DNA of 64,000 bases from Acidobacteriota bacterium (GTDB lineage Bacteria; Acidobacteriota; Vicinamibacteria; Vicinamibacterales; CAVVIG01), in the NCBI GenBank assembly GCA_046728115.1, contig JBKPDW010000197.1, forward strand, positions 16,151 through 80,150. Reading direction: 5' to 3'. Each line of letters begins with the position of its first letter. The stretch's first letter is position 1. Both the position numbers and the translations under genes were made by a program. Of the stretch, positions 23,813 to 58,645 are shown piece by piece. The notes under the pieces are model-generated. The model was not told the DNA's origin, searched no databases, and saw only the letters and a list, made by a program, of their open reading frames with translations.

Positions 23813-25194
23813 TACAGCTGGCCGAACAGAGCGACGAGCGTCGATTCGTCTTCCGGCACCACGGTTCGAAGATCGAGGACGACGCGGTCGTTCTCGATGC
23901 GCGCGATGACCGGCGGCGACAGCTGTCGTAGTCGATTTTCGAGCGCATCGGCCGTCAATGCGTCCTTTTCGATCATCACGAGAACTGTCGGCAGCGTTAC
24001 GCCAGGTGCGCTGCCGCCGCCGACGGCCGAGACGCCGTCGATCGGTGTCGCGCGCCAGCCGGGCATGCCGTTCACCCGATCCGCCAACGCCGTGGCGCGC
24101 GCGCGGATGTCGTCGGCCGTCTGCGCCACCATGCGCTGGACCGGTACTGTGGACGGCGAGCGGCCGGCCGCGTATTCGTCAAGCGTCGCTTCCAGCGCCG
24201 CGTACGTCATCTTGTCTGCGCGCAGCGCGCGCATCAGCGGGTGGATGCGGACGCGATCCACAAAATCCGCGCGGCCGACAATGATCCCGGCCTGCGGTCC
24301 GCCGAGCAGCTTGTCGCCGCTGAAGCAGCAGAGGTCAGCGCCGGCGGCGACCGTGGCCGTCACGGCCGGCTCGTCGAGGGAGGGACCGGGGCCAGCGCCC
24401 AGATAGCCACTGCCGAGATCTTCGGCGACAGGAATGCCGCATTTTTTCCCGACGGCGACCAGTTCCTCGAGCGTCGGACGTTCGGTGAACCCTTCGATTC
24501 GGAAGTTCGAGGGGTGCACGCGCAGAATCAGGGCAGTCCGATCGCCAACCGCCGCCGCGTAATCCGCCGCACGCGTCTTGTTCGTCGTCCCAACCTCACG
24601 GAGGATCGCACCCGACTGTGCCATCACGTCGGGAATCCGGAAGCCGCCCCCGATTTCGACGAGCTCTCCGCGCGAAACGACGACTTCGCGGCCGGCGGCG
24701 AGCGCGGCCAACACAATCAGCGTCGCGGCAGCGTTGTTGTTGACAACGACCGCGGCCTCCGCGCCGGTGAGGTGACGCAGCAACGATTCGGCGTGCACGT
24801 CGCGACGGCCTCGCGCACCGCGTTCAACGTCGTATTCGAGCGACGAGTAGCCGCGCGCGACCTCTGTCACCCGTGCGATCGCCGCGGACGCCAACGGCGC
24901 ACGCCCGAGATTTGTGTGCACGACGACGCCTGTCGCGTTGATCACCGGTTGAAGCGACGGACGAAACAGACGCTCGAGCCCCGCGTGAGCCGTCGTTTCG
25001 ATTTTCGATGCGATGTCTTCAGCCACACCCGGAACGCGCTGAGTTGTACCGCGAGCAATCTCGCGCCGGATTGCGGCTGCAGCATCGCGCAGGGCGTTGA
25101 CCGTCGCTTCGGCCCCGAAACGAGCTTCGAGCTCGCGGACGGCCGGCCGATGCCGCAGCTGTTCAATCGAAGGGATCAATCTGAGCTCGGACAT
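23812..25194 (-). CDS. selA: L-seryl-tRNA(Sec) selenium transferase
   Basis: PVINATGVVVHTNLGRAPL, VVNNNAAATLIVL, VVSRGELVEIGGGFRIPDVM, EVGTTNKTRAADY and HPSNFRIEGFT match the SelA core, including the PLP-lysine region. Confidence 0.92.
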   Translation of the reverse strand: MSELRLIPSIEQLRHRPAVRELEARFGAEATVNALRDAAAAIRREIARGTTQRVPGVAEDIASKIETTAHAGLERLFRPSLQPVINATGVVVHTNLGRAPLASAAIARVTEVARGYSSLEYDVERGARGRRDVHAESLLRHLTGAEAAVVVNNNAAATLIVLAALAAGREVVVSRGELVEIGGGFRIPDVMAQSGAILREVGTTNKTRAADYAAAVGDRTALILRVHPSNFRIEGFTERPTLEELVAVGKKCGIPVAEDLGSGYLGAGPGPSLDEPAVTATVAAGADLCCFSGDKLLGGPQAGIIVGRADFVDRVRIHPLMRALRADKMTYAALEATLDEYAAGRSPSTVPVQRMVAQTADDIRARATALADRVNGMPGWRATPIDGVSAVGGGSAPGVTLPTVLVMIEKDALTADALENRLRQLSPPVIARIENDRVVLDLRTVVPEDESTLVALFGQL

Positions 25195-25267
25195 TTCAGA
25201 TTTCAGAGATTTCAGAGTGCAGATTTCAGGTTGATTTCAGAGTTTTGACTTCAGATTGCGAACTGAG
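25193..25267. repeat. ATTTCAGA word array filling the selA/ORF divergent spacer
   Basis: cATTTCAGATTTCAGAGATTTCAGAGtgcAGATTTCAGgttGATTTCAGAGttttgacTTCAGATTGcgaactgag. The array runs into the start codons on both sides. Confidence 0.8.
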
Positions 25268-25288
25268 TCGACGATCGTCCGCAATGTT

Positions 25289-25720
25289 ATGCTAACAGTT
25301 CTCCCCATGGCTTCGGACCCGCCGAAATTCCGTCCGCTCGAGCGGTTCTGGCCGTACGCCGAAATTCCTGAACAGCCGACGGAGGAAGAACTGGCGGCGC
25401 TGAATCCGGATTTGTACGAAGCGCTGTACGGCGCGCGGTCTCGGGATTTCTCGATCACACTGGTCTTCCCCCATCTTGACGTGCCTCATTTCGACGAGGC
25501 GCTCGCGCTGGCGCGCGCGTCGGCGGAATTCCGGGAGACCGGTGCCGGTCCAACCCATCGCTACCGCGCACGCTTCTCGTCCACCGACGCCGCCCGGCTT
25601 CGCGATCTCTTTCACATCGTCGGCCACGCCGACGCCACCGACGTACTGGTCGATGACCGTCCGGTTCCATATGCGCGGGAATTGTGGCTGCCGCTCATGT
25701 GGTTCCTCATCCAACGCTGA
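25289..25720 (+). CDS. Hypothetical protein
   Basis: ORF with high GC3. Start uncertain (TTG 25256, ATG 25289 or ATG 25307). No family recognised. Confidence 0.5.
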   Translation: MLTVLPMASDPPKFRPLERFWPYAEIPEQPTEEELAALNPDLYEALYGARSRDFSITLVFPHLDVPHFDEALALARASAEFRETGAGPTHRYRARFSSTDAARLRDLFHIVGHADATDVLVDDRPVPYARELWLPLMWFLIQR

Positions 25721-25727
25721 GAAGTCG

Positions 25728-26306
25728 ATGGCGACGTCAGCGTTTGCAAAGGATCTGCAGCGGCTCGAAGCCGACATGAAGCAGCTCGAGGCCGAATACA
25801 ATCAGTTTTTTTCCGGACGCCTCCCAAAGCCGCCATGGGAAACGCGGAGCCGCGTCGAGGCGCTCGTCAAGCAGTACGATCGGGCGCATATCCAGAACAC
25901 CGGCGATCGCTTCCGGTTTCACACGCTCCAGTCGCGGTTTGCGACCTTCGTGGATCTCTGGGATCGTGGCATGCGCGCGCGCGAAGAGGGCCGTCCGGGC
26001 CCGTTCTCTCACGTCCGGGCGACGAGGGAACCCGAACGGAAGGAACCGGCCGATCGCATCCTGCACGTAGCGTCTTTTCGCGATCCAGTTCGCGAAATCG
26101 ACAAGCTGACGGATCTCTACGAGTCGCTGGCGGAAGCGCGGCGCGAAGCCGGCGACGAGCCGGTGCCGTTCCATCGATTCGCGGATCTCATCAAGACCCA
26201 GGTCGGCAAACTCCGGGACGAGGGGAACGGCGAAGTTGCGTTCCGCGTCGCGCTGAAGGATGGAAAAGTGGCGTTGACGGCGCGAGCGCTGAAAGGGGCG
26301 ACTTAG
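25728..26306 (+). CDS. Conserved-looking hypothetical protein (coiled-coil N-terminus)
   Basis: ATG 25728 (MATSAFAKDLQRLEADMKQLEAEYNQFFSG...). Strong GC3 bias in this frame. The upstream part of ORF 25476.. overlaps the previous gene out of frame. Confidence 0.55.
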   Translation: MATSAFAKDLQRLEADMKQLEAEYNQFFSGRLPKPPWETRSRVEALVKQYDRAHIQNTGDRFRFHTLQSRFATFVDLWDRGMRAREEGRPGPFSHVRATREPERKEPADRILHVASFRDPVREIDKLTDLYESLAEARREAGDEPVPFHRFADLIKTQVGKLRDEGNGEVAFRVALKDGKVALTARALKGAT

Positions 26307-26350
26307 GGTGGCTGAGGCCGGTGGTGGGTGGAGCTGTCGGCGGATGGGCG

Positions 26351-26394
26351 GATGGCTGACGGCCGAGAGTTTATGACCCTCGGCCATCAGCCAT
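26351..26394. terminator. Hairpin between convergent genes (possible bidirectional terminator)
   Basis: GATGGCTGACGGCCGAGagtttatgaccCTCGGCCATCAGCCAT. Stem of about 16 bp with one mismatch. Confidence 0.45.
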
Positions 26395-26403
26395 GAACGG
26401 TCT

Positions 26404-26607
26404 TCAGATTTTGGTGACGTTGCCGGCCTGCGGGCCTTTGGGACCGTCAACGATCTCGAACTCCACTGCCTGACCTTCCTCGAGCGAACGGAATCCGTCA
26501 CCTTGAATGGCCGAGTAGTGCACGAAGACATCGCTGCCTCCGTCTCGTTCGATGAACCCGTACCCTTTGGCGTTGTTGAACCACTTGACCTTGCCTGTAA
26601 TGCGCAT
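26404..26607 (-). CDS. Cold-shock protein (CspA family), 67 aa
   Basis: [34 protein letters not shown] (RNP1/RNP2 motifs). SD aggaag upstream. The longer ORF-track N-terminus is not credible. Confidence 0.95.
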
Positions 26608-26648
26608 CTTTCTCTTCCTGCTTGCTGTGACGCATCGCGTCGGTGAAC

Positions 26649-26677
26649 AAAAAAAAAGGCCGCGTATTGCGGCCTTT
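26649..26677 (-). terminator. Intrinsic-terminator-like hairpin plus U-tract inside the csp 5' leader
   Basis: Minus strand reads AAAGGCCGCaatacGCGGCCTTTTTTTTTTGTT. It lies about 40 nt upstream of the csp ATG and downstream of the predicted csp promoter. Confidence 0.5.
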
Positions 26678-26712
26678 CCCTTTCGGCGCCAGGCCCGCCC
26701 GGCGTCCACTTA

Positions 26713-26741
26713 ATAATACTGGACTTTGCCATCTATGCCAA
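26713..26741 (-). promoter_or_regulatory. Predicted sigma70-type promoter of csp (overlaps the purH start)
   Basis: Minus strand has TTGGCA (26741-26736), a 17-nt spacer, then TATTAT (26718-26713). This predicts a leader of about 100 nt. Confidence 0.5.
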
Positions 26742-30631: not shown

Positions 30632-31737
30632 TTTATCGCGGCCTCGACGACCTGCCCCGGTTCAATGCGAGTCAGGCACCGGAAGTCGCCGGGTTCGCAT
30701 ACGCGTTGATCGCACGGGCGACAGGGCAGCCCGTGGACCTGCAGTGGAATCGTGGTCAGTCCAGTGGGGCGCCACGGCGCCCAGGTTTCGGGCAGCGTGG
30801 GACCGTACATCCCGATGATCTTCACCGACGTTGTGGCGGCGACGTGGAGCGGGCCGGTGTCGCAGCCGATGTAGAGTGCCGCGCGCCGGGACAGCGCATG
30901 CAGTTGGTCGAGGGTCCAGTCACGCGGGTCGAGCACGGCTGCGCGAGCGGATGGCGGCAGGCTGGCGCGCGCACCGGCGACGACCGTCGTGGCCGTGTCC
31001 TCGTCAGGACCAGCCACTACCACGAATCGTGTTCGATCATCAGCCGCGGCGATCTCGGCGATCGCCCGAACGAAGTAGTCCGCCGGCCAACGGCGGAAGT
31101 GAATTCGTGCGCCTACGTGCACGATGACAAGGCGATGTTCGGCGCCGATCTCGAGACCGCGCAGCCAGCAATCGATTGCGTCTCCTGCCGCTGGATCCGG
31201 CGTGAGTTCGATTGGGTGCGAATCCGGGGTTGGCCGCGGAATACCGAGGGGTTCGACGAGATCCCATTGATTGTCGACCGTGTGGCGCGGTCGAAGTTCG
31301 CGCGTCCGGCCGACGCGAACGGTGTACAACCACGCACGACCGGCGACTTCGTACCCGATGCGGATCGGCGCGCCGGATACCCACGTGAACCACGAGCTGC
31401 GCGGGCCGCCGTGAAAATCGATGGCCAGATCGTATCGGCGCTGCCGAAGCCAGAGCCCGAGTCCGATATCCTTGAAGAACCGACGCGGCGCCTCCGGGGC
31501 TTCCACGACGACCACGTCGTCGATGTTCGGGTTGCGCTCGACGATGGGCGCCGCAAGGGGTTCGACGAGGTAACTGATCGTCGCCGCCGGAAATCTTTCG
31601 CGGATGGCTCGTACTGCGGGTGTGGTCAGGACGACGTCGCCTATTCGGCGAAGGCGAACCAAAAGGATCCGCGAGAGTTGGCGGGTTGGTGAATTGAGAT
31701 GTTGGCGGGTCGAGGGATTGCCTGGATCGGTATGCAC
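30616..31737 (-). CDS. Glycosyltransferase family 9 (ADP-heptose:LPS heptosyltransferase-like)
   Basis: RILLVRLRRIGDVVLTTPAVRAIRERFP...ISYLVEP and C-terminal GCDTGPLHVAA. Start uncertain: the first roughly 20 codons lie inside an intergenic-type hairpin (31674-31773). Confidence 0.8.
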   Translation of the reverse strand: MHTDPGNPSTRQHLNSPTRQLSRILLVRLRRIGDVVLTTPAVRAIRERFPAATISYLVEPLAAPIVERNPNIDDVVVVEAPEAPRRFFKDIGLGLWLRQRRYDLAIDFHGGPRSSWFTWVSGAPIRIGYEVAGRAWLYTVRVGRTRELRPRHTVDNQWDLVEPLGIPRPTPDSHPIELTPDPAAGDAIDCWLRGLEIGAEHRLVIVHVGARIHFRRWPADYFVRAIAEIAAADDRTRFVVVAGPDEDTATTVVAGARASLPPSARAAVLDPRDWTLDQLHALSRRAALYIGCDTGPLHVAATTSVKIIGMYGPTLPETWAPWRPTGLTTIPLQVHGLPCRPCDQRVCEPGDFRCLTRIEPGQVVEAAIKCLER

Positions 31738-31773
31738 TCGGTCACCAACTCACCGACTCACCAACTCGCCAGC
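31674..31773. repeat. GTTGGYG/CACCAACTC word hairpin between trm112-like and GT9 genes
   Basis: Left arm GAGTTGGCGGGTTGGTGAATTGAGATGTTGGCGGGTCGAG. Right arm CTCGGTCACCAACTCACCGACTCACCAACTCGCCAGC. The arms are imperfect reverse complements. Confidence 0.6.
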
Positions 31774-31946
31774 TAATCAGTCTCGATTGTGGCCTCATCG
31801 ATCAACATGACCGGAATGTCGTCCTTGATCGGATACACACGTTTGCTCGTGGCGCACTTGAGGGCCGTGCCGTTCTTCACCAGCGTCACCGGTGTTTTGC
31901 AGTTGGGGCACGCGAGTATCTCGAGTAATTCAGGATCGACGGCCAT
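31773..31946 (-). CDS. Trm112/YcaR-family small zinc-ribbon-like protein (UPF0434)
   Basis: MAVDPELLEILACPNCKTPVTLVKNGTALKCATSKRVYPIKDDIPVMLIDEA. This is the characteristic family sequence. The ORF track extends it spuriously upstream. Confidence 0.8.
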   Translation of the reverse strand: MAVDPELLEILACPNCKTPVTLVKNGTALKCATSKRVYPIKDDIPVMLIDEATIETD

Positions 31947-34007: not shown

Positions 34008-34094
34008 GTTCCACCACGGTGGACCGGGGGGACGCGGAGGTCAACATCTGTGAGTCGCTTCCTCCGTGTCCGGTGTGTCCTCCGTGGCAGAGAG
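34008..34094 (+). repeat. Palindromic intergenic element, CACCACGGAGGACAC family, copy C
   Basis: gttCCACCACGGTGGACCGGGGGGACGCGGAGGtcaacatctgtgagtcgcttCCTCCGTGTCCGGTGTGTCCTCCGTGGCAGAGAG. Confidence 0.8.
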
Positions 34095-35741: not shown

Positions 35742-35860
35742 GGTAGTCGCAAGTCTTCAGTCATCAGTCGCAAGTCATAGTCCACGTCGGACGACATCCC
35801 TCTGGAGCGTCGAGCCAGGCCCGCGACCCGAGACTGGAGACAAGTGACTGGCGACTACGG
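35742..35860. repeat. AGTCGCAAGTC word hairpin immediately 5' of tRNA-Gln
   Basis: Left arm GGTAGTCGCAAGTCttcAGTCatcAGTCGCAAGTCatAGTCC. Right arm GACTggagacaAGTGACTGGCGACTACGG abuts the tRNA 5' end. Confidence 0.6.
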
Positions 35861-37665: not shown

Positions 37666-37669
37666 ACCG

Positions 37670-37724
37670 TTCAGAGTTCAGATTTCAGAGTTCAGATTGA
37701 TTTCAGAGTTTAGAGTTCAGATTG
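37670..37724. repeat. TTCAGAG word array between rplY and pth (same family as 25193-25267)
   Basis: gTTCAGAGTTCAGATTTCAGAGTTCAGATTGATTTCAGAGTTTAGAGTTCAGATTG. The final TTG is the pth start codon. Confidence 0.8.
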
Positions 37725-38327: not shown

Positions 38328-38369
38328 CGCCGACGTGGCGCCACCTTGCCACCTGAGGGTGGCCGGCGT

Positions 38370-38460
38370 TCATTGCAAATTGCAGATTGCCAAATTGCTG
38401 ATTGATTGATCATTTCACAGTTCAATCAGCAATTGGCACCCGGCAATCAGCAACAATCGC
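38370..38460. repeat. ATTGCAAAT/CAATTGC word hairpin between pth and rpsF
   Basis: CATTGCAAATTGCAGATTGCCAAATTGCTGATTGAttgatcatttcacagtTCAATCAGCAATTGGCAcccGGCAATCAGCAAcaatcgc. The stem pairs 38388-38405 with 38422-38438. Confidence 0.7.
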
Positions 38461-38480
38461 TGTCCAGAAGGAGCATTGAA

Positions 38481-38933
38481 GTGGCTGATCGACAGTACGA
38501 GCTCGTCTACATCCTTCCTCCCGAAACAACCGAGCAGCAGGTGGCCGAGCTGCACGCACAGGTCGAATCGGTGGTGTCGCGTATGAACGGCGCGATCGAG
38601 AAGACCGAGAACTGGGGCCGCAAGCGCCTCGCCTACGAGATCGGCCGCAACAAAGAGGGCGTCTACGTCCTCGAACTGATCAACGGATCCGGAGAACTGA
38701 TGAAGGAGCTGGATCGCCGCCTGAAGGTGGTCGATCTCGTCATGCGGCACCTGATCGTCCGCGTGGACGACGAAAAGAAAGTCGTCGAACGGACGCAGAC
38801 CAAGCGCCGGACCGAGTCCGAGCGCCGGCGCGTCAAGCGCGGCCTGCCGCCGCAGCGACAGCCCGGCGAAGGCCGTGCGTCCAGCGATCTCGACGAAACC
38901 GATGACGATCGTTTTGACGGAGTGGAGGTCTGA
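38481..38933 (+). CDS. rpsF: 30S ribosomal protein S6
   Basis: GTG start after gaaggag. [21 protein letters not shown]...[12 protein letters not shown]. Acidic C-terminal extension. Confidence 0.9.
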
Positions 38934-39327: not shown

Positions 39328-39789
39328 ATGGAAGTAATCCTCAGAACGCACGTCGACAATCTCGGCCGCCGCGGCGAGGTGGTGAAAGTCGCGGACGGCT
39401 ACGCGCGCAACTATCTCCTGCCGCGGAAGCTGGCGCTGGTGGCAACCGAGGGGAACAAGAAGCAGATCGAGCGCGAGCGCGCGAAGTTCGACGCGCAGGA
39501 GGTCGAAGAGCAGAAGGTCGCCTCCGCCGTCGCGGAGCGGCTCGCGGGTGTCGAGATCGAAATCGCCCGCAAGGTCGGCGAGACCGAAGCCTTGTACGGA
39601 TCGGTGACCAGCGCAGACATTGCGGAGGCACTGCGCGCCAGGGGCTTCGACCTTGACCGGAAAAAGCTCGGTCTCCACGAGCCGATCAAGAAGCTCGGTG
39701 ACTTCGACGTGCCGATCAAATTGCATCGCGACGTGATGACCCACGTCAAGCTTCGGGTGATTGCCGAAAAAAGCGAAAATGAAAAGTAA
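39328..39789 (+). CDS. rplI: 50S ribosomal protein L9
   Basis: MEVILRTHVDNLGRRGEVVKVADGYARNYLLPRKLA. Confidence 0.95.
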   Translation: MEVILRTHVDNLGRRGEVVKVADGYARNYLLPRKLALVATEGNKKQIERERAKFDAQEVEEQKVASAVAERLAGVEIEIARKVGETEALYGSVTSADIAEALRARGFDLDRKKLGLHEPIKKLGDFDVPIKLHRDVMTHVKLRVIAEKSENEK

Positions 39790-39886
39790 TGAAAAGTAAG
39801 AAGTCAAAAGTCAGAAGTCAGAAGTAGAATTCGTCAGATTCGACCCTTCGCACGTCTGACTTTTGACTTCCTACTTCTGACTTTCA
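39778..39886. repeat. AAGTCAG word hairpin between rplI and dnaB
   Basis: ATGAAAAGTAATGAAAAGTAAGAAGTCAAAAGTCAGAAGTCAGAAGTAG...TCTGACTTTTGACTTCCTACTTCTGACTTTCAG. GAAGTCAAAAGTCAGA and TCTGACTTTTGACTTC are exact reverse complements. The array ends at the dnaB GTG. Confidence 0.8.
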
Positions 39887-43415: not shown

Positions 43416-43503
43416 CTCTTCACCACGGAGGACACCCCGGACATGGAGCACACTTGTATGCACCAACCAACCCCGTGTCCTCGGTGTCCTCCGCGCTGGA
43501 GAG
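43416..43503 (+). repeat. Palindromic intergenic element, CACCACGGAGGACAC family, copy D
   Basis: CTCTTCACCACGGAGGACACCCCGGACATGGAGCACACttgtatgcaccaaccaaCCCCGTGTCCTCGGTGTCCTCCGCGCTGGAGAG. Confidence 0.8.
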
Positions 43504-44326: not shown

Positions 44327-45472
44327 ATGATCCGTCCGACCGTCGCGCGCATCGATCTCGAAGCTCTGAAATCCAACTATCGACAGATCGTGGCGTTCGT
44401 TTCGGGAACCGGGGCTGGGGCTGCTGGCTCCGGTCCTGGTCCTCGGGTGACGGCCGTAGTCAAAGCGAACGCGTACGGCCACGGTGCCGTGCAAATCGCG
44501 CTCGCGCTCGAAGAGGCCGGCGCTGATTCTCTCGCATGCGCCGACATCGAGGAAGGAACGACGCTCCGTGCCGCTGGAGTCCGCGCCGAGATTCTGGTTT
44601 TCGGTGCCCTCAGCGTCAGCGACCTCGATGGGATCTTCGACGGAGTGTTGACGCCGACGATCTCGACGCCGGGCGCTGCGCGCGCGGTGCAGGCGGCGGC
44701 CGCAAGGCATCGCCAGCAGGTGCGCTATCACCTGAAGATCGACACCGGCATGAACCGGTTGGGTTTCCGGCACGACAATCTGCGCCGGACCCTGCCTGAT
44801 CTGCTTGCCAGCCCCAATCTCGAGCTCGCGGCCATCTACACACATTTCGCCACCGCGGACGATCCGGAGTCGCCGCTGTTCAACGAGCAGCGCCTGCGGT
44901 TCGAGGGGGCGGTGGCGGTCATCGGTGACCTCCGTCCCTCCTCCAACCGTCCCCCTTACCTCCACGCCGCCAACAGCGCCGCGCTGTTGCGCGATTCGCG
45001 CGTCTGGTACGACTGCGTCCGGCCGGGCCTGCTCTTGTACGGCCTGGTTCCGCCGCCACTTGCCTCGACGCTCCCACTCACGCCGGTGATGGCGTTGACC
45101 AGCCGCATCGTCGCGGTGAAGGGCATTCGTCCGGGCGAAGGCGTCGGCTACGGTGTGAGATTCACGGCCCACGAACCGAGACAGATTGCCATCGTTCCAG
45201 CAGGGTACGCCGATGGACTCGATCTACGCCTGGCGGGTCCCGCCAACGTCCTGATTCGTGGCCGGCGCGCGCCGATTGTGGGCTCGGTGTGTATGGACAT
45301 GCTGATGGCGGACGTGACCGGCCTGGACGCCTCGCCTGGCGACGAGGTGGTCATCATCGGTTCCCAAGGCGCCGATCGCATCGACGTTCGTGAGATGGCT
45401 GCACAGATTGGTACGATTCCGTACGAGATCCTGTGCAGGATTGGAAGCAGAATCGAGCGCGTTTACTCGTGA
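44327..45472 (+). CDS. alr: Alanine racemase
   Basis: VVKANAYGHGAV (PLP lysine), and C-terminal VCMDMLMADVT...IPYEILCRIGSRIERVY. Confidence 0.92.
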   Translation: MIRPTVARIDLEALKSNYRQIVAFVSGTGAGAAGSGPGPRVTAVVKANAYGHGAVQIALALEEAGADSLACADIEEGTTLRAAGVRAEILVFGALSVSDLDGIFDGVLTPTISTPGAARAVQAAAARHRQQVRYHLKIDTGMNRLGFRHDNLRRTLPDLLASPNLELAAIYTHFATADDPESPLFNEQRLRFEGAVAVIGDLRPSSNRPPYLHAANSAALLRDSRVWYDCVRPGLLLYGLVPPPLASTLPLTPVMALTSRIVAVKGIRPGEGVGYGVRFTAHEPRQIAIVPAGYADGLDLRLAGPANVLIRGRRAPIVGSVCMDMLMADVTGLDASPGDEVVIIGSQGADRIDVREMAAQIGTIPYEILCRIGSRIERVYS

Positions 45473-45553
45473 ATCTGGTAATTTGGTAATCGGGTAATCT
45501 GGTAATTGGATTGCTCAATCGCCCAATCCAATTACTCGATTACACGATTACCT
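45473..45553. repeat. GGTAAT word hairpin (exact 8-nt period) between alr and radA
   Basis: Left arm GGTAATTT GGTAATCG GGTAATCT GGTAATTG GATTG (45477-45513). Right arm CAATCCAATTACTCGATTACACGATTACC (45524-45552). About 29-bp imperfect stem. Confidence 0.8.
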
Positions 45554-45560
45554 CGTTGCC

Positions 45561-47030
45561 ATGCCGAAGCGTGCCCCGACCGTCTTTGTCTGTCAGGAAT
45601 GCGGCGCGCAGTCGCCCAAACAGCAGGGCCGCTGCTTCGACTGCGGCGCGTGGAACTCTTTCGTCGAGGAACGTGCGCAGGACGCGGGTGGGGCGCCGCC
45701 TGCTGGACATCGATACGCGCTCGCAGGTTCCTCCGGATCGGCGCGGCTGTACGCGGACATCGAGATGGAGAACTGCTCGCGACTCGGCACCGGCATCGAC
45801 GAACTGGATCGCGTCCTGGGCGGAGGGGTCGTGCCCGGGTCGCTTGTGCTGCTGGGCGGCGAGCCGGGGATCGGCAAGTCGACGTTACTCCTTCAAGCCG
45901 CTGCGAATCTGGCGCGAACGGCCGGGCCGGTGCTCTACAGCTCCGGCGAGGAATCCGAGCATCAGATCAAGTCACGTGGCGAACGGCTCGCCGTGGGCGA
46001 CGCGCCGCTCTATCTGCTTGCGGAAACGTGCCTCGAGCGAATCCTGGAAGAAATCGCGCGCCTCAAGCCCGCGTTGATCGTCGTGGACTCGGTGCAGACT
46101 ATCTTCTCCCTGAAGTTTCAGTCGGCGCCAGGCAGTATCGGTCAGGTCCGAGAAGCGGCGACACAGCTGCTGTTCACCGCGAAAGGACACAACATCCCCA
46201 CGTTTCTCGTGGGACACGTCACCAAGGACGGCAGCCTCGCCGGCCCGAAGGCGCTCGAGCACGTCGTCGATACCGTTCTGTACTTCGAGGGTGAGCGCCA
46301 CCACTCGCACCGCGTGGTCCGCGCGGTGAAGAACCGTTTTGGTGCGATTAGCGAACTCGGCGTGTTCGAGATGACGTCGAACGGCCTGCGGCCAGTGCCC
46401 AACCCTTCGAAGATGTTCCTCGCCGAGCGGCCGAACAACGCGCCGGGCTCTGCCGTCCTGTGCTCGGTCGAGGGCTCACGGCCGATTCTGGTGGAAGTGC
46501 AGGCGCTCGTCAGCTCCAGTTCCTACGGCATGGCCCGCCGGACCGCGAACGGCATCGATCAGCAACGATTAGCGCTGCTTCTCGCGGTGCTCGAAAAGCG
46601 CGCCGGTCTGAACCTGATCGGCGACGATGTGTTCGTGAATATTGCGGGAGGGATGACGGTCGACGAGCCCGCATCCGATCTCGGGGTCGTCGCCGCGATT
46701 GCCTCGAGCGTGAGAAATCGCGTGATTCCGGCGACAACCGCGATGTTCGGCGAAGTTGGTCTGGCGGGCGAAGTGCGCGCGATCTCGCAAGCGTCGCTCC
46801 GTGTCCGCGAAGCCGCGCAGATGGGGTTCAAACGCTGCATCATGCCCGAAGCGAATATCGATCCGGACGCTCGCCTGAAAGGCTCGCGCGACGATGAACA
46901 TGCTCGCCGGAAAGGATCGCGCGACGAAGAAGACGCGCACCTGACCGGATCGCGCGGCGAAGAAAACGGCGGCTGCGAGCTCGTCGGCGTCCGAACGATC
47001 GGTGAAGCGCTCGACGCGGCCCTGAGTTAA
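45561..47030 (+). CDS. radA: DNA repair protein RadA/Sms
   Basis: N-terminal Zn finger FVCQECGAQSPKQQGRCFDCGAWNSF, Walker A GGEPGIGKSTL, KNRFG motif, and a Lon-like C-domain. Carries a 3x11-aa repeat insertion near the C-terminus. Confidence 0.95.
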   Translation: MPKRAPTVFVCQECGAQSPKQQGRCFDCGAWNSFVEERAQDAGGAPPAGHRYALAGSSGSARLYADIEMENCSRLGTGIDELDRVLGGGVVPGSLVLLGGEPGIGKSTLLLQAAANLARTAGPVLYSSGEESEHQIKSRGERLAVGDAPLYLLAETCLERILEEIARLKPALIVVDSVQTIFSLKFQSAPGSIGQVREAATQLLFTAKGHNIPTFLVGHVTKDGSLAGPKALEHVVDTVLYFEGERHHSHRVVRAVKNRFGAISELGVFEMTSNGLRPVPNPSKMFLAERPNNAPGSAVLCSVEGSRPILVEVQALVSSSSYGMARRTANGIDQQRLALLLAVLEKRAGLNLIGDDVFVNIAGGMTVDEPASDLGVVAAIASSVRNRVIPATTAMFGEVGLAGEVRAISQASLRVREAAQMGFKRCIMPEANIDPDARLKGSRDDEHARRKGSRDEEDAHLTGSRGEENGGCELVGVRTIGEALDAALS

Positions 47031-47047: not shown

Positions 47048-47120
47048 CCCAACCCCTAATCCCTTACCAATCCCTACCGCCCAATCCCGCAATCCCTTAC
47101 CCGATCGCCAATCCCCAGCC
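47048..47120. repeat. AATCCC word array between convergent radA and hydrolase genes
   Basis: CCCAACCCCTAATCCCTTACCAATCCCTACCGCCCAATCCCGCAATCCCTTACCCGATCGCCAATCCCCAGCC. It is the reverse-complement word of the GGGATT arrays at 57441-58118. Confidence 0.75.
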
Positions 47121-50231: not shown

Positions 50232-51776
50232 ATGCGAGTTCGTTTCGCTCCTAGTCCGACCGGGCACCTGCACGTCGGCAACGCCCGCACGGCGCTGTTC
50301 AACTGGCTGGTCGTGCGGGGATCGGGCGGAACGTTCATCCTGCGCATCGAGGACACCGATTCGGAGCGCTCCACGCTCGAGTCCGAGAATTCGATGCTGC
50401 GCGATCTCCGCTGGCTTGGACTGGATTGGAACGAAGGCCCCGACGTTGGCGGTTCGCACGGCCCGTATCGTCAGTCGGAGCGCCTGCACCTCTATCACTC
50501 TTACGCTAAGGAACTTCTCGGCTCGGAGGCAGCCTACTTCTGTTTTTGCTCGGTGGCGCAGCTCGAAGCGGATCGCCAGGACGCACTCGCGGCCGGACGG
50601 CCCGCGCACTACGTCGGACGATGCCGCCGTTTGTCGCGCGGCGAGGCGTTCGCGCGGATCGAAAACGGCGAACGTCCCGCGATCCGTTTTCGTGTACCCG
50701 AGCAGCGCGACGTTGTCTTCACCGACGTCGTCCGGGGCGAAGTCCGATTCCACACGAGCGTCATCGGCGATCCGATCATTGTCCGTGCCGACGGCCATCC
50801 CGCCTACAACTTTGCTGTCGTCGTGGACGATGCGCTGATGGAGGTGACGCACGTCATCCGCGGCGAGGATCACATCTCGAACACGCCGCGTCAGATTCTG
50901 CTGTATGAGGCGCTTGGATTCGCGCCTCCAGCGTTTGCGCACCTGGCGCTGGTCCTGGGGCCCGATCACAGCCCGCTATCGAAGCGGCACGGCGCCACAT
51001 CGGTGGCCGAGTTTCGCGCAAAAGGCTACCTGCCCGAAGCGCTCGTCAACTATCTCGCATTGATCGGATGGTCGCCCGGCAACGACGATGAACTGCTGCC
51101 GATCGACGAGCTGGTGCGGCGGTTCTCGCTGGACGCGGTCGGGCACAGCGCCGGTGTGTTCGACGAGGAGAAGCTCGCGTGGGTGAACCGGCACTACATG
51201 AAGCTCGCGGATCCGATGCGTCTTGCCGGCCTCACGGTTCCGTTCTTCCGGCAGGCCGGCCTTCGAATGTCGCCTGACGAGCGCGGCCTCGAGTTTCTCG
51301 CCCAGGCCATGCCGATGGCGAACTCCTGGGTCGATCGCCTCAGTCAGGTGCCAGACCGTCTCGGGTTCTTGTTCGAATTCGATCCGCGCGCCGCCTTGAT
51401 GGTGCCGGAAGTATCCGACGAGATACGCACGGACGACGCGCGAGCCGTTGTCACGGCGCTCGCAGCGGCGCTGGCGTCGGCGCCACCGCTCGATCGCGAC
51501 GCGTTTCGCGCGGTTGCCGATCAGGTGAAGGCTCAGACCGGCCGAAAAGGTCGCGCTCTGTTTCATCCTATCCGCGTTGCGTTGACGGGTCGGGCCGAGG
51601 GGCCCGAGCTCGATCTCGCCGTGCCTGCGATTGATCGGGGCGCGGCGCTGCCGTCGAGCGCGGGCCTTCCGCCGATTCTCGGGAATCGCAAACGCGCGGC
51701 GGCATTTGCGCGGGCGTTGGAAAATCTTCACCACGGAGGAGACAGGGAACAGGGGGACTCGAGGCTTATCGAGTGA
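50232..51776 (+). CDS. gltX: Glutamate--tRNA ligase
   Basis: RVRFAPSPTGHLHVGNARTALFNW (HIGH) and PLSKRHG (KMSKS-like). The last roughly 17 codons and the stop lie inside repeat copy E. Confidence 0.95.
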   Translation: MRVRFAPSPTGHLHVGNARTALFNWLVVRGSGGTFILRIEDTDSERSTLESENSMLRDLRWLGLDWNEGPDVGGSHGPYRQSERLHLYHSYAKELLGSEAAYFCFCSVAQLEADRQDALAAGRPAHYVGRCRRLSRGEAFARIENGERPAIRFRVPEQRDVVFTDVVRGEVRFHTSVIGDPIIVRADGHPAYNFAVVVDDALMEVTHVIRGEDHISNTPRQILLYEALGFAPPAFAHLALVLGPDHSPLSKRHGATSVAEFRAKGYLPEALVNYLALIGWSPGNDDELLPIDELVRRFSLDAVGHSAGVFDEEKLAWVNRHYMKLADPMRLAGLTVPFFRQAGLRMSPDERGLEFLAQAMPMANSWVDRLSQVPDRLGFLFEFDPRAALMVPEVSDEIRTDDARAVVTALAAALASAPPLDRDAFRAVADQVKAQTGRKGRALFHPIRVALTGRAEGPELDLAVPAIDRGAALPSSAGLPPILGNRKRAAAFARALENLHHGGDREQGDSRLIE

Positions 51777-51810
51777 CGATCCTCCGTGTCCCTTGTGTCC
51801 TCGGTGGCGG
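51725..51810 (+). repeat. Palindromic intergenic element, CACCACGGAGGACAC family, copy E (overlaps the gltX 3' end)
   Basis: aTCTTCACCACGGAGGAGACAGGGAACAGGGGGActcgaggcttatcgagtgacgaTCCTCCGTGTCCCTTGTGTCCTCGGTGGCGG. Confidence 0.8.
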
Positions 51811-51821
51811 CGAACTTCACG

Positions 51822-53384: not shown

Positions 53385-53460
<76 letters not shown>

Positions 53461-54794: not shown

Positions 54795-54811
54795 CGGCCA
54801 GAGATGCAGCC

Positions 54812-54961
54812 ATGAGAGACATCGTCGCGATGGCCTGCACCGAGTGCAAGCGTCGCAACTACAGTACGACGAAGAACAAGAAGAAGACGACGGAACGGCT
54901 GGAATTCAGCAAGTTCTGCCGGTACTGCCGCAAGCACACGGCGCATCGCGAGTCGAAGTAA
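54812..54961 (+). CDS. rpmG: 50S ribosomal protein L33 (49 aa; below the ORF-track length cutoff)
   Basis: My translation gives [49 protein letters not shown]. It has CxxC...CxxC and sits in the tuf-rpmG-tRNA-Trp-secE position. Confidence 0.88.
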
Positions 54962-55059
54962 CGAGAGGCGCGGATTGGGGCTCGGCGACTGGGGATTGCG
55001 GTTTGGAAAAAGAGAGTTCCTCTCATCCCTGCTCCCTGCTCTCAGATCGCTGCTCTTGA

Positions 55060-55135
55060 AGGCCAGTAGCTCAATTGGCAGAGCACCGGTCTCCAAAACC
55101 GGGGGTTGGGGGTTCGATTCCCTCCTGGCCTGCCA
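55060..55135 (+). tRNA. tRNA-Trp (anticodon CCA), CCA encoded
   Basis: aggccagtagctcaattggcagagca ccggtCTCCAAAaccgg gggttgggggttcgattccctc ctggcctGCCA. Confidence 0.93.
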
Positions 55136-55301
55136 GCCTTCGCTCGCGGCTGCATCACGACAGCGAGCTACGGCCTGGCAAGCCGAAGCGCTGAGCGCGA
55201 AGGTTGCGCTCGGCGAGCCCGGCGGAGGCTGTCTCGTCGAAGCGCGAAGGCGGACCCGTAGCGGAGGCGGACAAATCGTCGGAAGCAGGAAGTAGAAAGA
55301 C
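55136..55301 (+). repeat. tRNA-trailing structured spacer, copy 3
   Basis: GCCTTCGCTCGCGGCTGCATCACGACAGCGAGCTACGGC...GCTGAGCGCGAAGG...GTCGAAGCGCGAAGGCGGACCCGTAGCGG. It precedes secE. Confidence 0.6.
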
Positions 55302-55550
55302 ATGGCAGAAACCACAACGCTCGAGACAGTAAAGGGCGCGACCGGCGGACGGATCGAACGCATCCGTCTGTTTCTCAGCGAGGTCCGCAACGAGCTGAAG
55401 CGCGTGACGTGGCCGTCGCAGAAAGAGGTCTACGCCACGACGGTTGTCGTGATCCTGACGTCGGTGTTCTTCGGCGTCTACTTGTTCGCGCTCGATCAGA
55501 TTCTGCTCACCACGGTGCAGTGGGTTTTCAGGAAGTTCGGTGCGGCGTAG
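55302..55550 (+). CDS. secE: Preprotein translocase subunit SecE
   Basis: FLSEVRNELKRVTWPSQKEVYATTVVVILTSVFFGVYLFALD. Confidence 0.9.
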   Translation: MAETTTLETVKGATGGRIERIRLFLSEVRNELKRVTWPSQKEVYATTVVVILTSVFFGVYLFALDQILLTTVQWVFRKFGAA

Positions 55551-56093
55551 ATGACCGACGACGCTCAGAAGAACTGGTACATCGTCCATACCTACTCGGG
55601 GTTCGAGAAGAAGGTCGCCGAGTCTCTGACCGAGCGCGTCAATGCGTACGGGCTGCAGAACGACATCGGCGAAGTGCTCATCCCGACAGAGGACGTGGTC
55701 GAGATGCGGGCGGGCAAGAAAGTCGTGACCGCGAAGCGGTTCTTCCCGGGCTATATCCTGGTCGAGATGAACATGTCCGACCACGCGTGGCACGTGGTGA
55801 AAAACACGCCGAAGGTGACGGGTTTTGTCGGCGCAGGCGCGAAGCCGACGCCGCTCAGCAAGGACGAGGTCGAGCAAATTCTGCAGCAGGTGCGCACGGC
55901 CGCGGAGAAGCCGAAGCCGAAGTACATGTTCGAAAAGGGCGAGCAGGTGCGGATCAACGAAGGGCCGTTCACCAGCTTCAACGGCGTGGTCGACGAGGTG
56001 AACGTCGACAAGAACACGTTGAAGGTCATGGTGACGATCTTCGGACGCTCCACGCCGGTGGAATTGGATTTCCTGCAGGTGGAGAAGATCTAG
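55551..56093 (+). CDS. nusG: Transcription termination/antitermination factor NusG
   Basis: [24 protein letters not shown], and the KOW motif [18 protein letters not shown]. Confidence 0.95.
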
Positions 56094-56155
56094 TCACGGG
56101 AGGACACGGATAAAGACCGGGGAGCGCAAGGATCCGTGGCTTCCGTGTGCGCGCG
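56094..56155 (+). repeat. Degenerate member of the CACGGAGGACAC palindrome family (copy F)
   Basis: TCACGGGAGGACACGGATaaagaccggggagcgcaaggATCCGTGGCTTCCGTGTG. Lies between nusG and rplK. Confidence 0.45.
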
Positions 56156-56191
56156 TCGGGATGGCCGTGACCTCCGAGGTAGAGCAGTCAG

Positions 56192-56617
56192 ATGGCGAAA
56201 AAAGTTCAAGCAATGGTGAAGCTCCAGATCGCGGCGGGGAAGGCCACGCCGGCGCCGCCTGTGGGGACCGCGCTCGGTCCGCAGGGCATCAACATCATGG
56301 ACTTCTGCAAGAACTTCAATTCGAAGACGGCGAAGGACGAAGGGCTCATCATTCCCGTTGTCGTCACCGTGTATGCCGACCGGTCCTATTCGTTCATCAC
56401 GAAGACGCCGCCGGCAGCCGTGCTGCTGAAGCGCGCAGCGAATATTGCCAAGGGATCGGCCGAACCCAACAAGAACAAGGTGGGCACGGTGACCAGGAAG
56501 CAGGTCGAGGAGATCGCGAAGATCAAGCTGCCCGACCTGAACGCCGAGTCGCTCGAAGCGGCAGTCAAGACCGTGGCCGGAACGGCGCGGTCGATGGGGC
56601 TGGATGTAATCGGGTAG
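56192..56617 (+). CDS. rplK: 50S ribosomal protein L11
   Basis: [43 protein letters not shown]. Confidence 0.97.
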
Positions 56618-56625
56618 GGACCATG

Positions 56626-56688
56626 GCTGATTGCAAATCGCCAATTGCAAATTGAAACGAGCAATTAGCAGTCTGCAACCTGCAATGA
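56626..56688. repeat. ATTGCAAAT/CAATTGC word spacer between rplK and rplA (same word family as 38370-38460)
   Basis: GCTGATTGCAAATCGCCAATTGCAAATTGaaacgaGCAATTAGCAGtctGCAAcctGCAATgag. Confidence 0.65.
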
Positions 56689-56734
56689 GAGGCGTGGGAG
56701 GGTCGAAAGACCCGTTCGAACCACGGGAGGATGC

Positions 56735-57439
56735 ATGAAGAAACGCGGCAAGAAGTTCACAGCGGCAAAAGCGCAGGTCGGCGATCGAACCTACTCGATC
56801 GAAGACGCGATGCCGTTGATGCAGAAAGTGAAATTCGCGAAGTTCGATGAAACCGTCGAGCTCTCGCTTCGCCTCGGCGTCGATCCGAAACACGCGGATC
56901 AGATGGTGAGGGGCACGGTCGTGCTGCCGCACGGCCTGGGAAAGAGCAAGCGCGTGCTCGCCATCGCCGGCGGCGAAAAGCAGAAGGAAGCGCAGGACGC
57001 CGGCGCCGACGTCGTCGGTGGCGAGGACATGGTGGAGAAGATCCAGGGTGGCTTCATGGACTTCGATGCCGTCGTGGCCACACCCGACATGATGCGCGCC
57101 GTCGGCAGGTTGGGGAAGGTGCTCGGTCCGCGCGGTCTGATGCCGAACCCGAAGACGGGCACCGTCACGACGGACATTAGCAAGGCCGTAAAGGAAATCA
57201 AAGCGGGCAAGGTCGAATTCCGCGTCGACAAGACCGGGATCATTCATGCGCCGCTCGGCAAGACATCGTTTGCCATTCCGTCGCTCGTCGCCAACGCGCA
57301 TGCGCTGGTCGAGAGCATTGTGAAGGCAAAGCCGGCGGCCGCGAAAGGCAAGTACCTGAGAAGCGTCACCGTATCGTCGACGATGGGGCCGGGGATCAAG
57401 ATCGATACGACGAATATTGAGGCGGCGGCGAAGCACTGA
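56735..57439 (+). CDS. rplA: 50S ribosomal protein L1
   Basis: [31 protein letters not shown], and [15 protein letters not shown]. Confidence 0.97.
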
Positions 57440-57440
57440 A

Positions 57441-57490
57441 GATCGGGGATTGGGATTGGAAGACAGCGATCAGGCGTAGGGATTCGGGGT
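57441..57490. repeat. GGGATT word spacer upstream of rplJ
   Basis: gatcGGGGATTGGGATTGGaagacagcgatcaggcgtaGGGATTCGGGG. Confidence 0.6.
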
Positions 57491-57503
57491 TAAAGGACAC
57501 GTA

Positions 57504-58034
57504 ATGGCAGTCACCAAAGCGGACAAAGCCGCCGAACTCGAACAGATCGAGACGGCATTGAAGGGCAGCGAGAGCGCGATCCTGGTGGACTACAAGGGGA
57601 TCAACGTCCCACAGGTCACCGAGCTGCGCCGTCAATTGCGATCGGCGAAGGCGACGTACAAGGTCGTCAAGAACACGCTGGCGAAGCGCGCGCTCAAGGG
57701 CACGAAGTTCGAGTCGTTCGAGAAATTCTTCGAGGGCACGACCGCGATCGCCTACACATCCACGGATCCGGTTGCGCTCGCCAAAACGCTGACGACGTTC
57801 GTCAAGACCGCTCCAACGTTGACGATCAAAGCGGCCGTTGTGCAGGGCCGCGCGATCAAGCCGGCAGAAGTGACCGATCTGGCAGCGTTGCCGGGCAAGC
57901 CGGAGCTGTACGCCAAGCTCCTCTTCGTCCTGCAGGCACCGATGGTACAGATCGTCAGCGTGCTGAACGCCGCACCGCGCGATTTGCTGAGCGTGCTCGT
58001 GCAGGCTGAAAAGAAGCGCGCCGGGGCGAGCTAG
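57504..58034 (+). CDS. rplJ: 50S ribosomal protein L10
   Basis: ILVDYKGINVPQVTELRRQLR...YKVVKNTLAKRA. Confidence 0.95.
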   Translation: MAVTKADKAAELEQIETALKGSESAILVDYKGINVPQVTELRRQLRSAKATYKVVKNTLAKRALKGTKFESFEKFFEGTTAIAYTSTDPVALAKTLTTFVKTAPTLTIKAAVVQGRAIKPAEVTDLAALPGKPELYAKLLFVLQAPMVQIVSVLNAAPRDLLSVLVQAEKKRAGAS

Positions 58035-58040
58035 CGCCGC

Positions 58041-58118
58041 GACCAGGGACCAGGGCTTGGGGATTCGTAAAACAGGGATTAGAGGCGAGGGATTAGTCGT
58101 TCGGATCGGGATTAGATC
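58041..58118. repeat. GGGATTAG word array upstream of rplL
   Basis: GACCAGGGACCAGGGcttGGGGATTCGtaaaacAGGGATTAGaggcgAGGGATTAGtcgttcggatcGGGATTAGatc. Confidence 0.7.
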
Positions 58119-58129
58119 AGGAGAGCACA

Positions 58130-58522
58130 ATGGCCGAAGTGACGCAGCAGCAGGTTGTCGATTACATCAAAGGCATCAGCGTACTCGAGCTCTCGCAGCT
58201 CGTGAAAACACTCGAGAGCGAGCTCGGCGTCTCGGCAGCGGCCGCCATGCCGATGGCGATGCCAATGGCGGGTGCCGCGGGCGGCGGTGCGGCGGCTCCG
58301 GCTGAAGAGAAGACCGAATTCAACGTCGTGCTGACCGAAATCGGTACCAACAAGATCAACGTCATCAAGATCGTGCGCGAGATCACCGCGCTCGGTCTCA
58401 AGGAAGCCAAGGATCTCGTCGAAGGTGCCCCGAAGAACGTGAAGGAAGGCGTCCCGAAGGATGAGGCCGAGGCCATCAAGAAGAAGTTCGAGGAAGTCGG
58501 CGCCAAAGTCGAGATCAAGTGA
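58130..58522 (+). CDS. rplL: 50S ribosomal protein L7/L12
   Basis: [19 protein letters not shown]..., and the C-terminus [42 protein letters not shown]. Confidence 0.97.
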
Positions 58523-58645
58523 TCTGAGGATCTGAGGATCTGAGGATGTAAGGATATAAGGATGTGAGGATGTGAGGCTATAGGTGAGGATGTAAGAATC
58601 CTCCAATCGATCCTCAGATCCTCACGTTCTCGATTCCTCAGATTG
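58521..58645 (+). repeat. 8-nt periodic GAT(N)T(R)AG / RAGGAU array plus inverted ATCCTC copies in the rplL-rpoB spacer
   Basis: GATCTGAG x3, GATGTAAG, GATATAAG, GATGTGAG x2, GCTATAGGTGAG, GATGTAAG. These are followed by AATCCTCC AATC GATCCTCA GATCCTCA cgttctc GATTCCTCA GATTG. Confidence 0.85.

Follow-up and report, generated by a model that had tools for sequence, protein, structure and literature searches.

Heptanucleotide repeat arrays and hairpins in the operon spacers of Vicinamibacterales: a rich lineage for a known class of bacterial simple sequence repeats

Many spacers between the genes of a 64,000-nt stretch of an Acidobacteriota genome from the order Vicinamibacterales (contig JBKPDW010000197.1, positions 16,151 to 80,150; the whole stretch is referred to here as the window) are filled by a short word repeated head to tail and, in most cases, by inverted copies of the same word. 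These spacers are heptanucleotide, less often octanucleotide, simple sequence repeats (SSRs) of the class known in bacteria as long SSRs (LSSRs), which is abundant in Vicinamibacterales. The feature is real and statistically overwhelming, and what is new is the lineage, rich in elements of a sort that has been described before but lacks an explanation. An earlier note on this DNA had not recognised the repeats as any named class. That they match none is wrong, as LSSRs, the GGGAATC arrays of Xanthomonas, the paired sites of Geobacter metallireducens, the cyanobacterial STRR and the TAACTGA arrays of Beggiatoa had already been published. The reading that we favour, with moderate confidence, is that the elements are repeat hairpins generated by slippage that act as intercistronic RNA hairpins.

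The abundance of the arrays was established in 1.38 Mb, made up of the window and 80 relatives and divided into 0.30 Mb of non-coding and 1.08 Mb of coding DNA. A first scan returned 196 arrays, 166 of them non-coding, and in 116 of these 166 an inverted partner lies within 150 nt. In the Vicinamibacterales loci sampled, an array turns up roughly every 1.6 kb of non-coding sequence. When a single stringency was applied to every period, the non-coding part held 142 arrays of 7 nt, 28 of 14 nt, which are alternating heptamers, and 23 of 8 nt, together with five of 9 nt, two of 6 nt and none of 4, 5 or 10 nt. Shuffled non-coding DNA gave no arrays, and the coding part, with 3.6 times more sequence, gave 11 of period 7. 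The relatives were gathered as two sets: 80 loci from a search with the L10 protein (72-88% identity), nearly all of which are from Vicinamibacterales/Acidobacteriota metagenome-assembled genomes and thereby place the window in that order, and a second set of 80 metagenome loci around rplI.

The gene map of the window, whose G+C content is about 63%, was built from Pfam searches on open reading frames (ORFs) and from tRNA and Rfam scans. It includes the nuo operon (8-20 kb), the minus-strand gene selA, purH, the series tRNA-Gln-prs-rplY(L25)-pth-rpsF-rpsR-rplI-dnaB, the pair alr-radA, a tRNA cluster, and the series tuf-rpmG-tRNA-Trp-secE-nusG-rplKAJL-rpoBC. The spacers listed in the earlier note were read one by one, each against 200 dinucleotide-preserving shuffles, and were additionally analysed with Tandem Repeats Finder (TRF) and by folding z-scores. 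Five of the six most periodic 40-nt segments of the whole 64 kb fall in spacers, and the pattern is confirmed for roughly half to two thirds of the listed spacers.

The architecture of a tandem word followed by its mirrored copy, forming a long imperfect hairpin, is seen in three spacers of the plus strand. Between rplL and rpoB, the 5' arm (58513-58597) begins at the rplL stop codon (58520-58522) and consists of about ten octamer units GATCTGAG/GATGTAAG (TGAGGATC/TAAGGATG; TRF period 8, 7.1 copies; periodicity z 6.9), and the 3' arm (58597-58645) of inverted units GATCCTCA (TRF 58609-58643), with a predicted fold of -55.2 kcal/mol for 58521-58645 (z -4.96). Between alr and radA, the 5' arm (45472-45513) starts at the alr stop codon and carries 4.4 copies of octamers GGTAATNN, of the GGTAATCT type (z 6.2), the 3' arm (45524-45552) reads GATTACNN, and the fold of 45473-45556 reaches z -7.86 with one mismatch per unit. 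The L9-dnaB spacer combines a region covering the end of rplI (L9) and the 5' arm (39778-39829), where a 10-nt unit in 2.2 copies is followed by an AAGTCAG array (39792-39829, 5.3 copies, z 6.3), with a 3' arm of 4.1 copies of TCTGACT (39855-39883) that ends 3 nt before the dnaB GTG start; here 39790-39886 folds with z -5.87. The 10-nt repeat of this spacer, AATGAAAAGT at 39778-39799, spans the last rplI codons and the stop codon, so the duplication extends into the end of the coding sequence.

Four further spacers carry hairpins or inverted words. The divergent spacer between a heptosyltransferase and a TPR gene contains a hairpin at 31675-31774, not assigned to a strand, whose 5' arm (31675-31705) is made of GTTGG words and whose 3' arm (31745-31774) lies within an array of 3.8 copies of TCACCAAC (31742-31774, z 6.5; fold of 31672-31776, z -5.83). 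The pth-S6 spacer (38372-38453, plus strand) has an ATTGCAA array of 3.7 copies plus a hairpin TTGCTGATTGATTG/CAATCAGCAA, with a minimum free energy (MFE) z of -4.0 over 38328-38492 and a periodicity p of 0.055. In the L11-L1 spacer (56629-56688, plus strand), GATTGCAAAT-type words are followed by inverted CAATTAGCAG...GCAATGA (periodicity p=0 and MFE z -2.1 for 56626-56688), upstream of a conserved L1 leader. Lastly, an imperfect long hairpin of AGTC-containing words (35742-35852, plus strand; fold of 35742-35860, z -3.15) stands immediately upstream of tRNA-Gln.

The mirrored design holds for the strong loci and generalises to the bacterial order. Two of the listed spacers carry direct arrays only. 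The L25-pth array (37666-37724, plus strand) consists of eight copies of TTCAGAG/TTCAGAT (periodicity p=0.005) and occupies the entire spacer up to the pth TTG start, without a Shine-Dalgarno sequence or an inverted copy (37666-37721, MFE z -0.2). The selA array (25193-25267, minus strand) lies in a divergent spacer and has about five copies of ATTTCAG, which on the sense strand of selA read (TCTGAAA)n and adjoin its ATG (25194-25192), likewise without a Shine-Dalgarno sequence or an inverted copy (z +0.76).

About a third of the listed spacers did not hold up as tandem arrays, being irregular hexamer clusters with no hairpin. The L10-L12 spacer (58041-58118, plus strand) has four copies of GGGATTAG at irregular spacing and no inverted copy (58035-58129, periodicity p=0.055, MFE z 0.1), and is a decayed or irregular cluster rather than a regular array. 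Three GGGATT copies stand in the L1-L10 spacer (57441-57490, plus strand; p=0.52 over 57440-57503) and five irregular ones in the convergent spacer between radA and a hydrolase (47048-47120, minus strand; p=0.22, MFE -6.5 kcal/mol). The stretches 54970-55001 and 23760-23815 (z -0.8), the latter around the listed array at 23767, have just two copies each. GGGATT is locally clustered, with 12 of its 32 window copies in three spacers at irregular spacing. The spacer between tuf and tRNA-Trp, formerly taken as non-coding throughout, contains the small gene rpmG (L33) at 54812-54961, and the true spacer on the tRNA-Trp side is 54962-55059. As for composition, the main arrays are AT-richer than coding DNA, as had been noted (GC 0.35-0.46 against about 0.63), but those at 47048, 35742, 31674, 54970 and 23767 are not (GC 0.58-0.74).

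Beyond the window, the architecture is kept at orthologous positions with turnover of the words. Across 70-80 species it is found at the rplL-rpoB, L11-L1 and L9-dnaB spacers; dozens of species retain it at rplL-rpoB, L11-L1 and L10-L12 with differing words, such as GGCTCTG, GGATTTGA, AGGAAGTG, GCGGATT, GGGACTA and GGTGTCT, and the L9-dnaB, S18-L9, pth-S6 and L25-pth spacers of the rplI-centred loci look alike. By eye, the 5' array in many L9-dnaB spacers directly follows the stop codon. The L25-pth spacer of relatives is either 2 nt long or a GCGGATT/GCAGATT array. The refuting condition that the earlier note had set for its own pattern holds in part: the close relative L099 lacks the whole L9-dnaB element and has no compensating structure.

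Two conserved leaders were observed next to these arrays. Downstream of the rplL-rpoB hairpin, the highly conserved motif GCGCTC(C/G)G-T-rich-CCTCGAGG (58651-58673) is present in all L12-rpoB spacers of loci L001-L080 and forms a small hairpin that pairs a Shine-Dalgarno-like GAGG, so this leader may be a translational control site for rpoB. Directly upstream of rplA, at 56694-56730 and in the L11-L1 spacers of relatives, a leader GTGGGAG-hairpin-GAACCACGGGAGG is probably an autoregulatory binding site for L1; it has no Rfam match. A further hairpin, GCGCTGGGGGTGGGGCCCCAGCGC followed by an A-rich run, recurs across spacers and species of the order (L008 in nusG-L11 and L10-L12, L038 in L10-L12, L024 at about 4345-4375) and was not noticed in the window.

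How the arrays change is visible between close relatives. L108 and L111, which are 98.5% identical, differ by four indels, three of them inside arrays and of 7, 14 and 43 nt. L099 and L101 are 95.9% identical, and between them the two arms of a GGGGACT hairpin have expanded jointly. Where L099 has a palindrome of a single word, GTATTGCG..CGCAATAC, L101 carries a hairpin of 3+3 words. In one clade, nine stem pairs of the rplL-rpoB hairpin show compensatory changes, and word variants are mirrored between the arms above the level of permuted order (p=2e-7). These data fit the gain and loss of units by slipped strands plus a process that keeps the arms complementary, and the mechanism suggested by the earlier note, slippage with template switching, fits indels of whole units and arms that lengthen together between close strains.

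Such dynamics would also be expected from neutral, hypermutable microsatellite debris, produced by slippage and template switching and tolerated in spacers without any function, a reading that we regard as possible though rather unlikely. It gains from the fast turnover of whole units, from the presence or absence of elements between relatives that are 95-98% identical, from the 78 distinct words found among 139 arrays, from the symmetry of the stem mismatches (G.T 157, A.C 130), and from the fact that an excess of heptamers is a general mutational pattern in bacteria. However, debris would not readily account for the compensatory pair changes, for the persistence of one L9-dnaB word family among species with merely 73-84% L9 identity, or for the depletion of ATG/CAT in the words (5 against 18 expected), and several features of position and polarity speak against it as well.

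The position of the arrays was scored with a crude coding mask based on third-codon-position GC content (GC3) at loci centred on two ribosomal-protein clusters. In 67 of 162 spacers, where 32 would be expected, the array starts at most 3 nt from the stop codon of the preceding gene, which speaks against neutral debris. Co-directional spacers hold 139 arrays in 188 kb, divergent spacers 12 in 40 kb, and convergent spacers a single one in 28 kb, where array counts and spacer lengths predict about 18; this near-emptiness is again hard to reconcile with functionless debris. Arrays touch the downstream start in only 8 of the 162 spacers, and a model of coupling in which the stem bridges stop and start codons was rejected as a general rule on that count.

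The location directly after stop codons would suit ordinary Rho-independent terminators too, as would the GTTTTT that follows the rplL-rpoB hairpin in one clade. Even so, this identity is extremely improbable: no array hairpin of the window passes a stem-plus-T-run scan, on which ground it was rejected for the window hairpins, the arrays are almost absent from the convergent spacers where terminators are expected, and the stems are AT-rich and 30-40 bp long. Moreover, many L9-dnaB spacers have, as judged by eye, a canonical terminator of their own, a GC hairpin with a U-run, standing between the two arms (AAGTCAG/AACTCAG/AAGTCTG with the complementary words); an automatic scoring of this array-terminator-array layout disagreed with the reading by eye, was too crude and was left unused.

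The hairpins themselves are polar. The G-rich arm comes first in 77 and second in 13 of 90 hairpins (p=3e-12), a bias that argues against neutral debris. Because the order is identical on whichever strand it is read, neither transcription nor replication can have set it by its direction. Speculatively, it might correspond to avoidance of exposed C-rich RNA, a loading site for Rho, or else to preferential fold-back of G-rich nascent DNA. Across 92 distinct hairpins the median gap between the arms is 26 nt (10-90% range 4-82 nt), and the arms are equal in length, overlapping over about 33 nt with about 80% Watson-Crick pairing.

The vocabulary of the arrays is broad and non-random. It uses 111 of 1172 possible heptamer classes in the lineage, follows a loose YYNYNRR pattern, and is enriched in GATT, CTGA, GGCT and AATT cores. 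Words had been described as specific to each locus, which is only partly so, for the same word may be used at more than one locus of a genome: 21.8% of comparisons between spacers of one genome agree in at least 6/7 positions against 6.0% between genomes, identity is reached in 7.8% against 1.2%, and sharing is 3.6- to 6.5-fold higher within genomes. Both the sharing and the non-random vocabulary would be expected from sites for a trans-acting protein, either a nucleoid or global regulator on DNA or a protein such as a cold-shock protein, S1 or CsrA that binds single-stranded RNA and covers about 7 nt, as would a period strictly of 7-8. Protein binding has been proposed in the Geobacter (PMC2700814, DNA) and TAACTGA/Beggiatoa (PMC4679880, RNA) papers, and 4 of 14 words published for other phyla occur in the lineage (p=0.04), an overlap too weak to build on. 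We nevertheless consider this explanation improbable. At least five unrelated words occur in one 30-kb stretch of one genome, the canonical heptamer classes number 111, the leader arrays of the window are reverse-complementary to each other on their sense strands (TCTGAAA for selA, TTCAGAG for pth), a 7-bp period does not present a single face of B-DNA, and the vocabulary statistics are inflated by phylogenetic non-independence.

Insertion into the spacers, by a transposase, of MITE- or REPIN-like miniature mobile elements would offer another origin for words shared within a genome and for cassettes of 120-162 nt that are present or absent between close relatives, and insertion sequence (IS) elements are known to target the analogous Geobacter sites (PMC2700814). 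Yet the heptamer arrays have neither conserved termini nor conserved internal sequence, the same orthologous spacers are occupied in dozens of species with words that diverge gradually, length differences are unit-step indels inside arrays and not insertions of whole elements, and no target-site duplications were seen by eye, all of which makes this explanation very unlikely for the heptamer arrays.

A separate, GC-rich family of period 9 also speaks for it. One member lies in the nuoC-nuoD spacer (9598-9680, plus strand), with period-9 arms CACGGAGGA (array 9601-9623, p=0.005; fold of 9592-9719, z -3.7). The dispersed motif CACGGAGGACACGG has 14 matches against 0.69 expected, and members lie also at about 16833-16900, 43421-43500, 51729-51790 and 56098-56180, and at 34060-34086, in the nuo operon and other spacers. 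With at least five window copies and conserved ends TTCACCACGGAGGACAC ... GGTGGAGAG, this family looks, from its sequence, like a separate REP- or MITE-like candidate. The rplL-rpoB spacer of relative L035 carries the same CACGGAGGA word.

Some observations concern the neighbourhood of these elements. The nuo cluster (8155-19918) has the order nuoA-(B)-C-D-E-F-H-J-K-L-M-N, and Pfam searches, the sole basis of the calls there, revealed no nuoG or nuoI among the ORFs in the nuoF-nuoH and nuoH-nuoJ intervals. Near its 3' end (46869-46964), radA has an in-frame 33-nt tandem repeat of 2.9 copies (TRF score 115) encoding ARLKGSRDDEH/ARRKGSRDEED/AHLTGSRGEEN. A cold-shock protein gene lies on the minus strand (26357-26677 and 26404-26607), with a match to the cspA thermoregulator 5' untranslated region (5'-UTR) that is below the Rfam threshold (48.8 bits, gathering score 78, E=1e-9). 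The metagenome contig L083 is identical to the window over rplK-rpoB and differs by about 10%, with indels, over secE-nusG (window 55300-56093), which points to a recombination mosaic or a chimeric assembly.

To return to repeat hairpins generated by slippage and acting on RNA, the proposed course would be as follows. Units would be gained and lost by slipped-strand mispairing, and intrastrand template switching (quasi-palindrome correction), selection for pairing, or the two combined would create the second arm and maintain its complementarity. Since the spacers lie inside operon-like clusters, the hairpins are presumably transcribed and would give long imperfect double-stranded RNA elements between cistrons. 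These could serve as processing sites of the RNase III type, as hairpins that stabilise 3' ends, or as attenuators such as the rplL-rpoB site, with the number of units tuning the length of the stem. The direct-only arrays at the start codons of selA and pth would instead be unstructured leaders without a Shine-Dalgarno sequence. In Escherichia coli, rplL-rpoB is a classical site both of attenuation and of RNase III cleavage.

Several results weigh against this explanation. None of the window hairpins resembles an intrinsic terminator. The stem appositions give no significant signature of sense-strand RNA (G.T against A.C, p=0.12), G-U pair counts are equal on both strands, and the sense strand folds better than the antisense strand in 46 of 69 spacers (p=0.0013) by a slight difference. 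In many L9-dnaB spacers the arms stand 60-120 nt apart around the canonical terminator, so both arms would rarely be on one RNA. About 30% of the arrays have no inverted copy, and the spacer-context statistics depend on the crude mask and the two ribosomal-protein clusters mentioned above. Local slippage alone leaves unexplained the sharing of words within a genome and the strong preference for period 7, and three metagenome contigs 97-100% identical to the window showed no copy-number variation within the species. Finally, the L9-dnaB spacer of L099 is 18 nt long, against elements of 138-183 nt in relatives about 95% identical, with the whole element (120-162 nt) missing, and many relatives have the 2-nt L25-pth spacer; such loss without replacement shows the elements to be dispensable, so any function would be modulatory.

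Whatever their role, the elements sit inside core operons such as rplKAJL-rpoBC, the cluster from rpsF to rplI and those of tRNA genes. Since 2007, heptanucleotide repeats have been recognised as the commonest long microsatellite of bacteria, and a single case, hmw of Haemophilus influenzae, has been studied in depth. The Vicinamibacterales rank with the most abundant bacteria of soils, and hundreds of related genomes exist. The origin, the G-first polarity, the anchoring to stop codons and a possible role of RNase III become tractable by comparative genomics and simple RNA experiments. For annotation, the repeats explain many odd AT-rich spacers in high-GC acidobacterial genomes and warn of their hypervariability.

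Among known systems, the general class is that of the LSSRs, in which heptanucleotide units are the most abundant class in prokaryotes and for which polymerase slippage was proposed (Mrazek 2007, as summarised in PMC4679880 and PMC4692102). As these two papers present them, LSSRs are tandem units of 5-11 nt, most commonly 7, that are longer than chance, intergenic, sporadic across phyla and attributed to slippage. The present arrays agree in their head-to-tail units beyond chance (window periodicity z 3.5-6.9, and lineage arrays where shuffles gave none), in the predominance of 7 nt with non-triplet units confined to non-coding DNA, and in the whole-unit length changes between close strains such as L108 and L111. 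They differ in that the survey, according to the same summaries, is not reported to cover Acidobacteria or mirrored hairpins.

Mirrored hairpins are known from Xanthomonas, where about 185 GGGAATC arrays, 70-75 of them as convergent inverted pairs, are transcribed (Rehm et al. 2015, PMC4692102). The likeness includes intergenic heptamers in inverted pairs that form stem-loops, with position conserved and length and sequence varying, and our 116 pairs of 166 are likewise two opposite-strand arrays of one word, close to each other and convergent. Their polarity would also be G-rich-first if, as we read it, 'convergent' there means that the G-rich repeat of the plus strand comes first. Each Xanthomonas genome has a single G-tract word, which was interpreted as forming G-quadruplexes. 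The genomes of the present lineage use many words, most without G-runs: the main ones of the window (ATTTCAG, AAGTCAG, GGTAATCT, ATTGCAA and GATCTGAG) lack a G3 run, hence the tract per unit that a G-quadruplex would need, and the GGGATT clusters are irregular.

Several word classes per genome are found in Geobacter metallireducens, whose paired tandem sites of classes 1-3 (GTTGCTYN, TCTCCGTS[Y] and MTYCTGA) consist of 3-5 octa- or heptanucleotide units, with the two members of a pair on opposite strands and variably spaced (Aklujkar et al. 2009, PMC2700814), and also lie between operon genes, such as proB-proA. As far as the published consensus goes, the elements described here agree with such paired sites (gap 4-82 nt, at least five word families in the window); the Geobacter word CTTCTGA is of the same class as AAGTCAG of the window, and TCTCCGTG resembles TCCTCCGTG of the window. 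The Geobacter sites are, however, read as sites of an unidentified global regulator or of IHF/HU, with a fixed number of 3-5 copies and in a different phylum. In turn, the selA and pth leader arrays match the TAACTGA/cyanobacterial STRR pattern of direct heptamers ending a few nt from starts: the TAACTGA arrays of Beggiatoaceae, cyanobacteria and Bacteroidetes lie just upstream of start codons without a ribosome-binding site, in ribosomal-protein operons too (MacGregor 2015, PMC4679880), yet consist of a single word conserved across genomes that is almost never inverted (one indirect repeat in 170 sets).

Other named families fit less well. REP/BIME/REPIN elements are likewise intergenic imperfect palindromes within operons, form families within a genome and have been proposed to stabilise mRNA, but each family has one conserved sequence of 20-40 nt with a GTAG or CGTC head and a link to RAYT, and its arms are not tandem short words. 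The heptamer arrays, with their many words and no conserved head, were therefore set apart from them, and only the GC-rich CACGGAGGACACGG family looks REP-like here. MITEs were rejected as the identity of the arrays, whose indels, by eye, are internal unit steps or deletions of a whole palindrome without duplications, and so were CRISPRs, which have repeats of 23-50 nt with unique spacers instead of contiguous units of 7-9 nt. The search of Rfam that the earlier note had advised returned, at gathering score, tRNAs only and no family for any spacer, and a permissive scan of 25-59 kb (E<1) gave chance miRNA-like matches on two hairpins only.

A broader and more tentative interpretation, which we consider unlikely, would make one system of the Geobacter, Xanthomonas, cyanobacterial, Beggiatoa and present repeats: a distinct class of intercistronic control elements, spread over several phyla, whose words would be limited to those with GATT, CTGA, GGCT or AATT cores, anchored at stop codons with the G-rich arm first, and read by a conserved machine. 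That machine could be, for instance, RNase III acting with a cold-shock protein or another single-strand binder that covers 7 nt, or Rho avoidance might take its place. If this were true, slippage in unit steps would let adjacent housekeeping genes adjust how strongly they are expressed relative to each other, in the manner of a built-in rheostat.

The closest functional parallel is the (ATCTTTC)n repeat of H. influenzae hmw1A, which forms the left arm of a 5'-UTR hairpin that is cleaved by RNase III and is needed both for expression and for changes in repeat number (Rapun-Araiz et al. 2025, PMC12721329). In the hmw transcript, a long imperfect hairpin has a heptamer SSR on one side, as is predicted for the present elements, and the number of repeats tunes hmw expression. 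The case differs in being a single phase-variable virulence locus whose right arm is non-repetitive and G-rich and whose pyrimidine-rich arm comes first, whereas the elements of Vicinamibacterales lie in housekeeping operons and have two repetitive arms, their hairpins being predicted and their transcription deduced from the operon context. With its heptamer-repeat hairpin shown experimentally to be an RNase III target, hmw is a precedent for the repeats described here.

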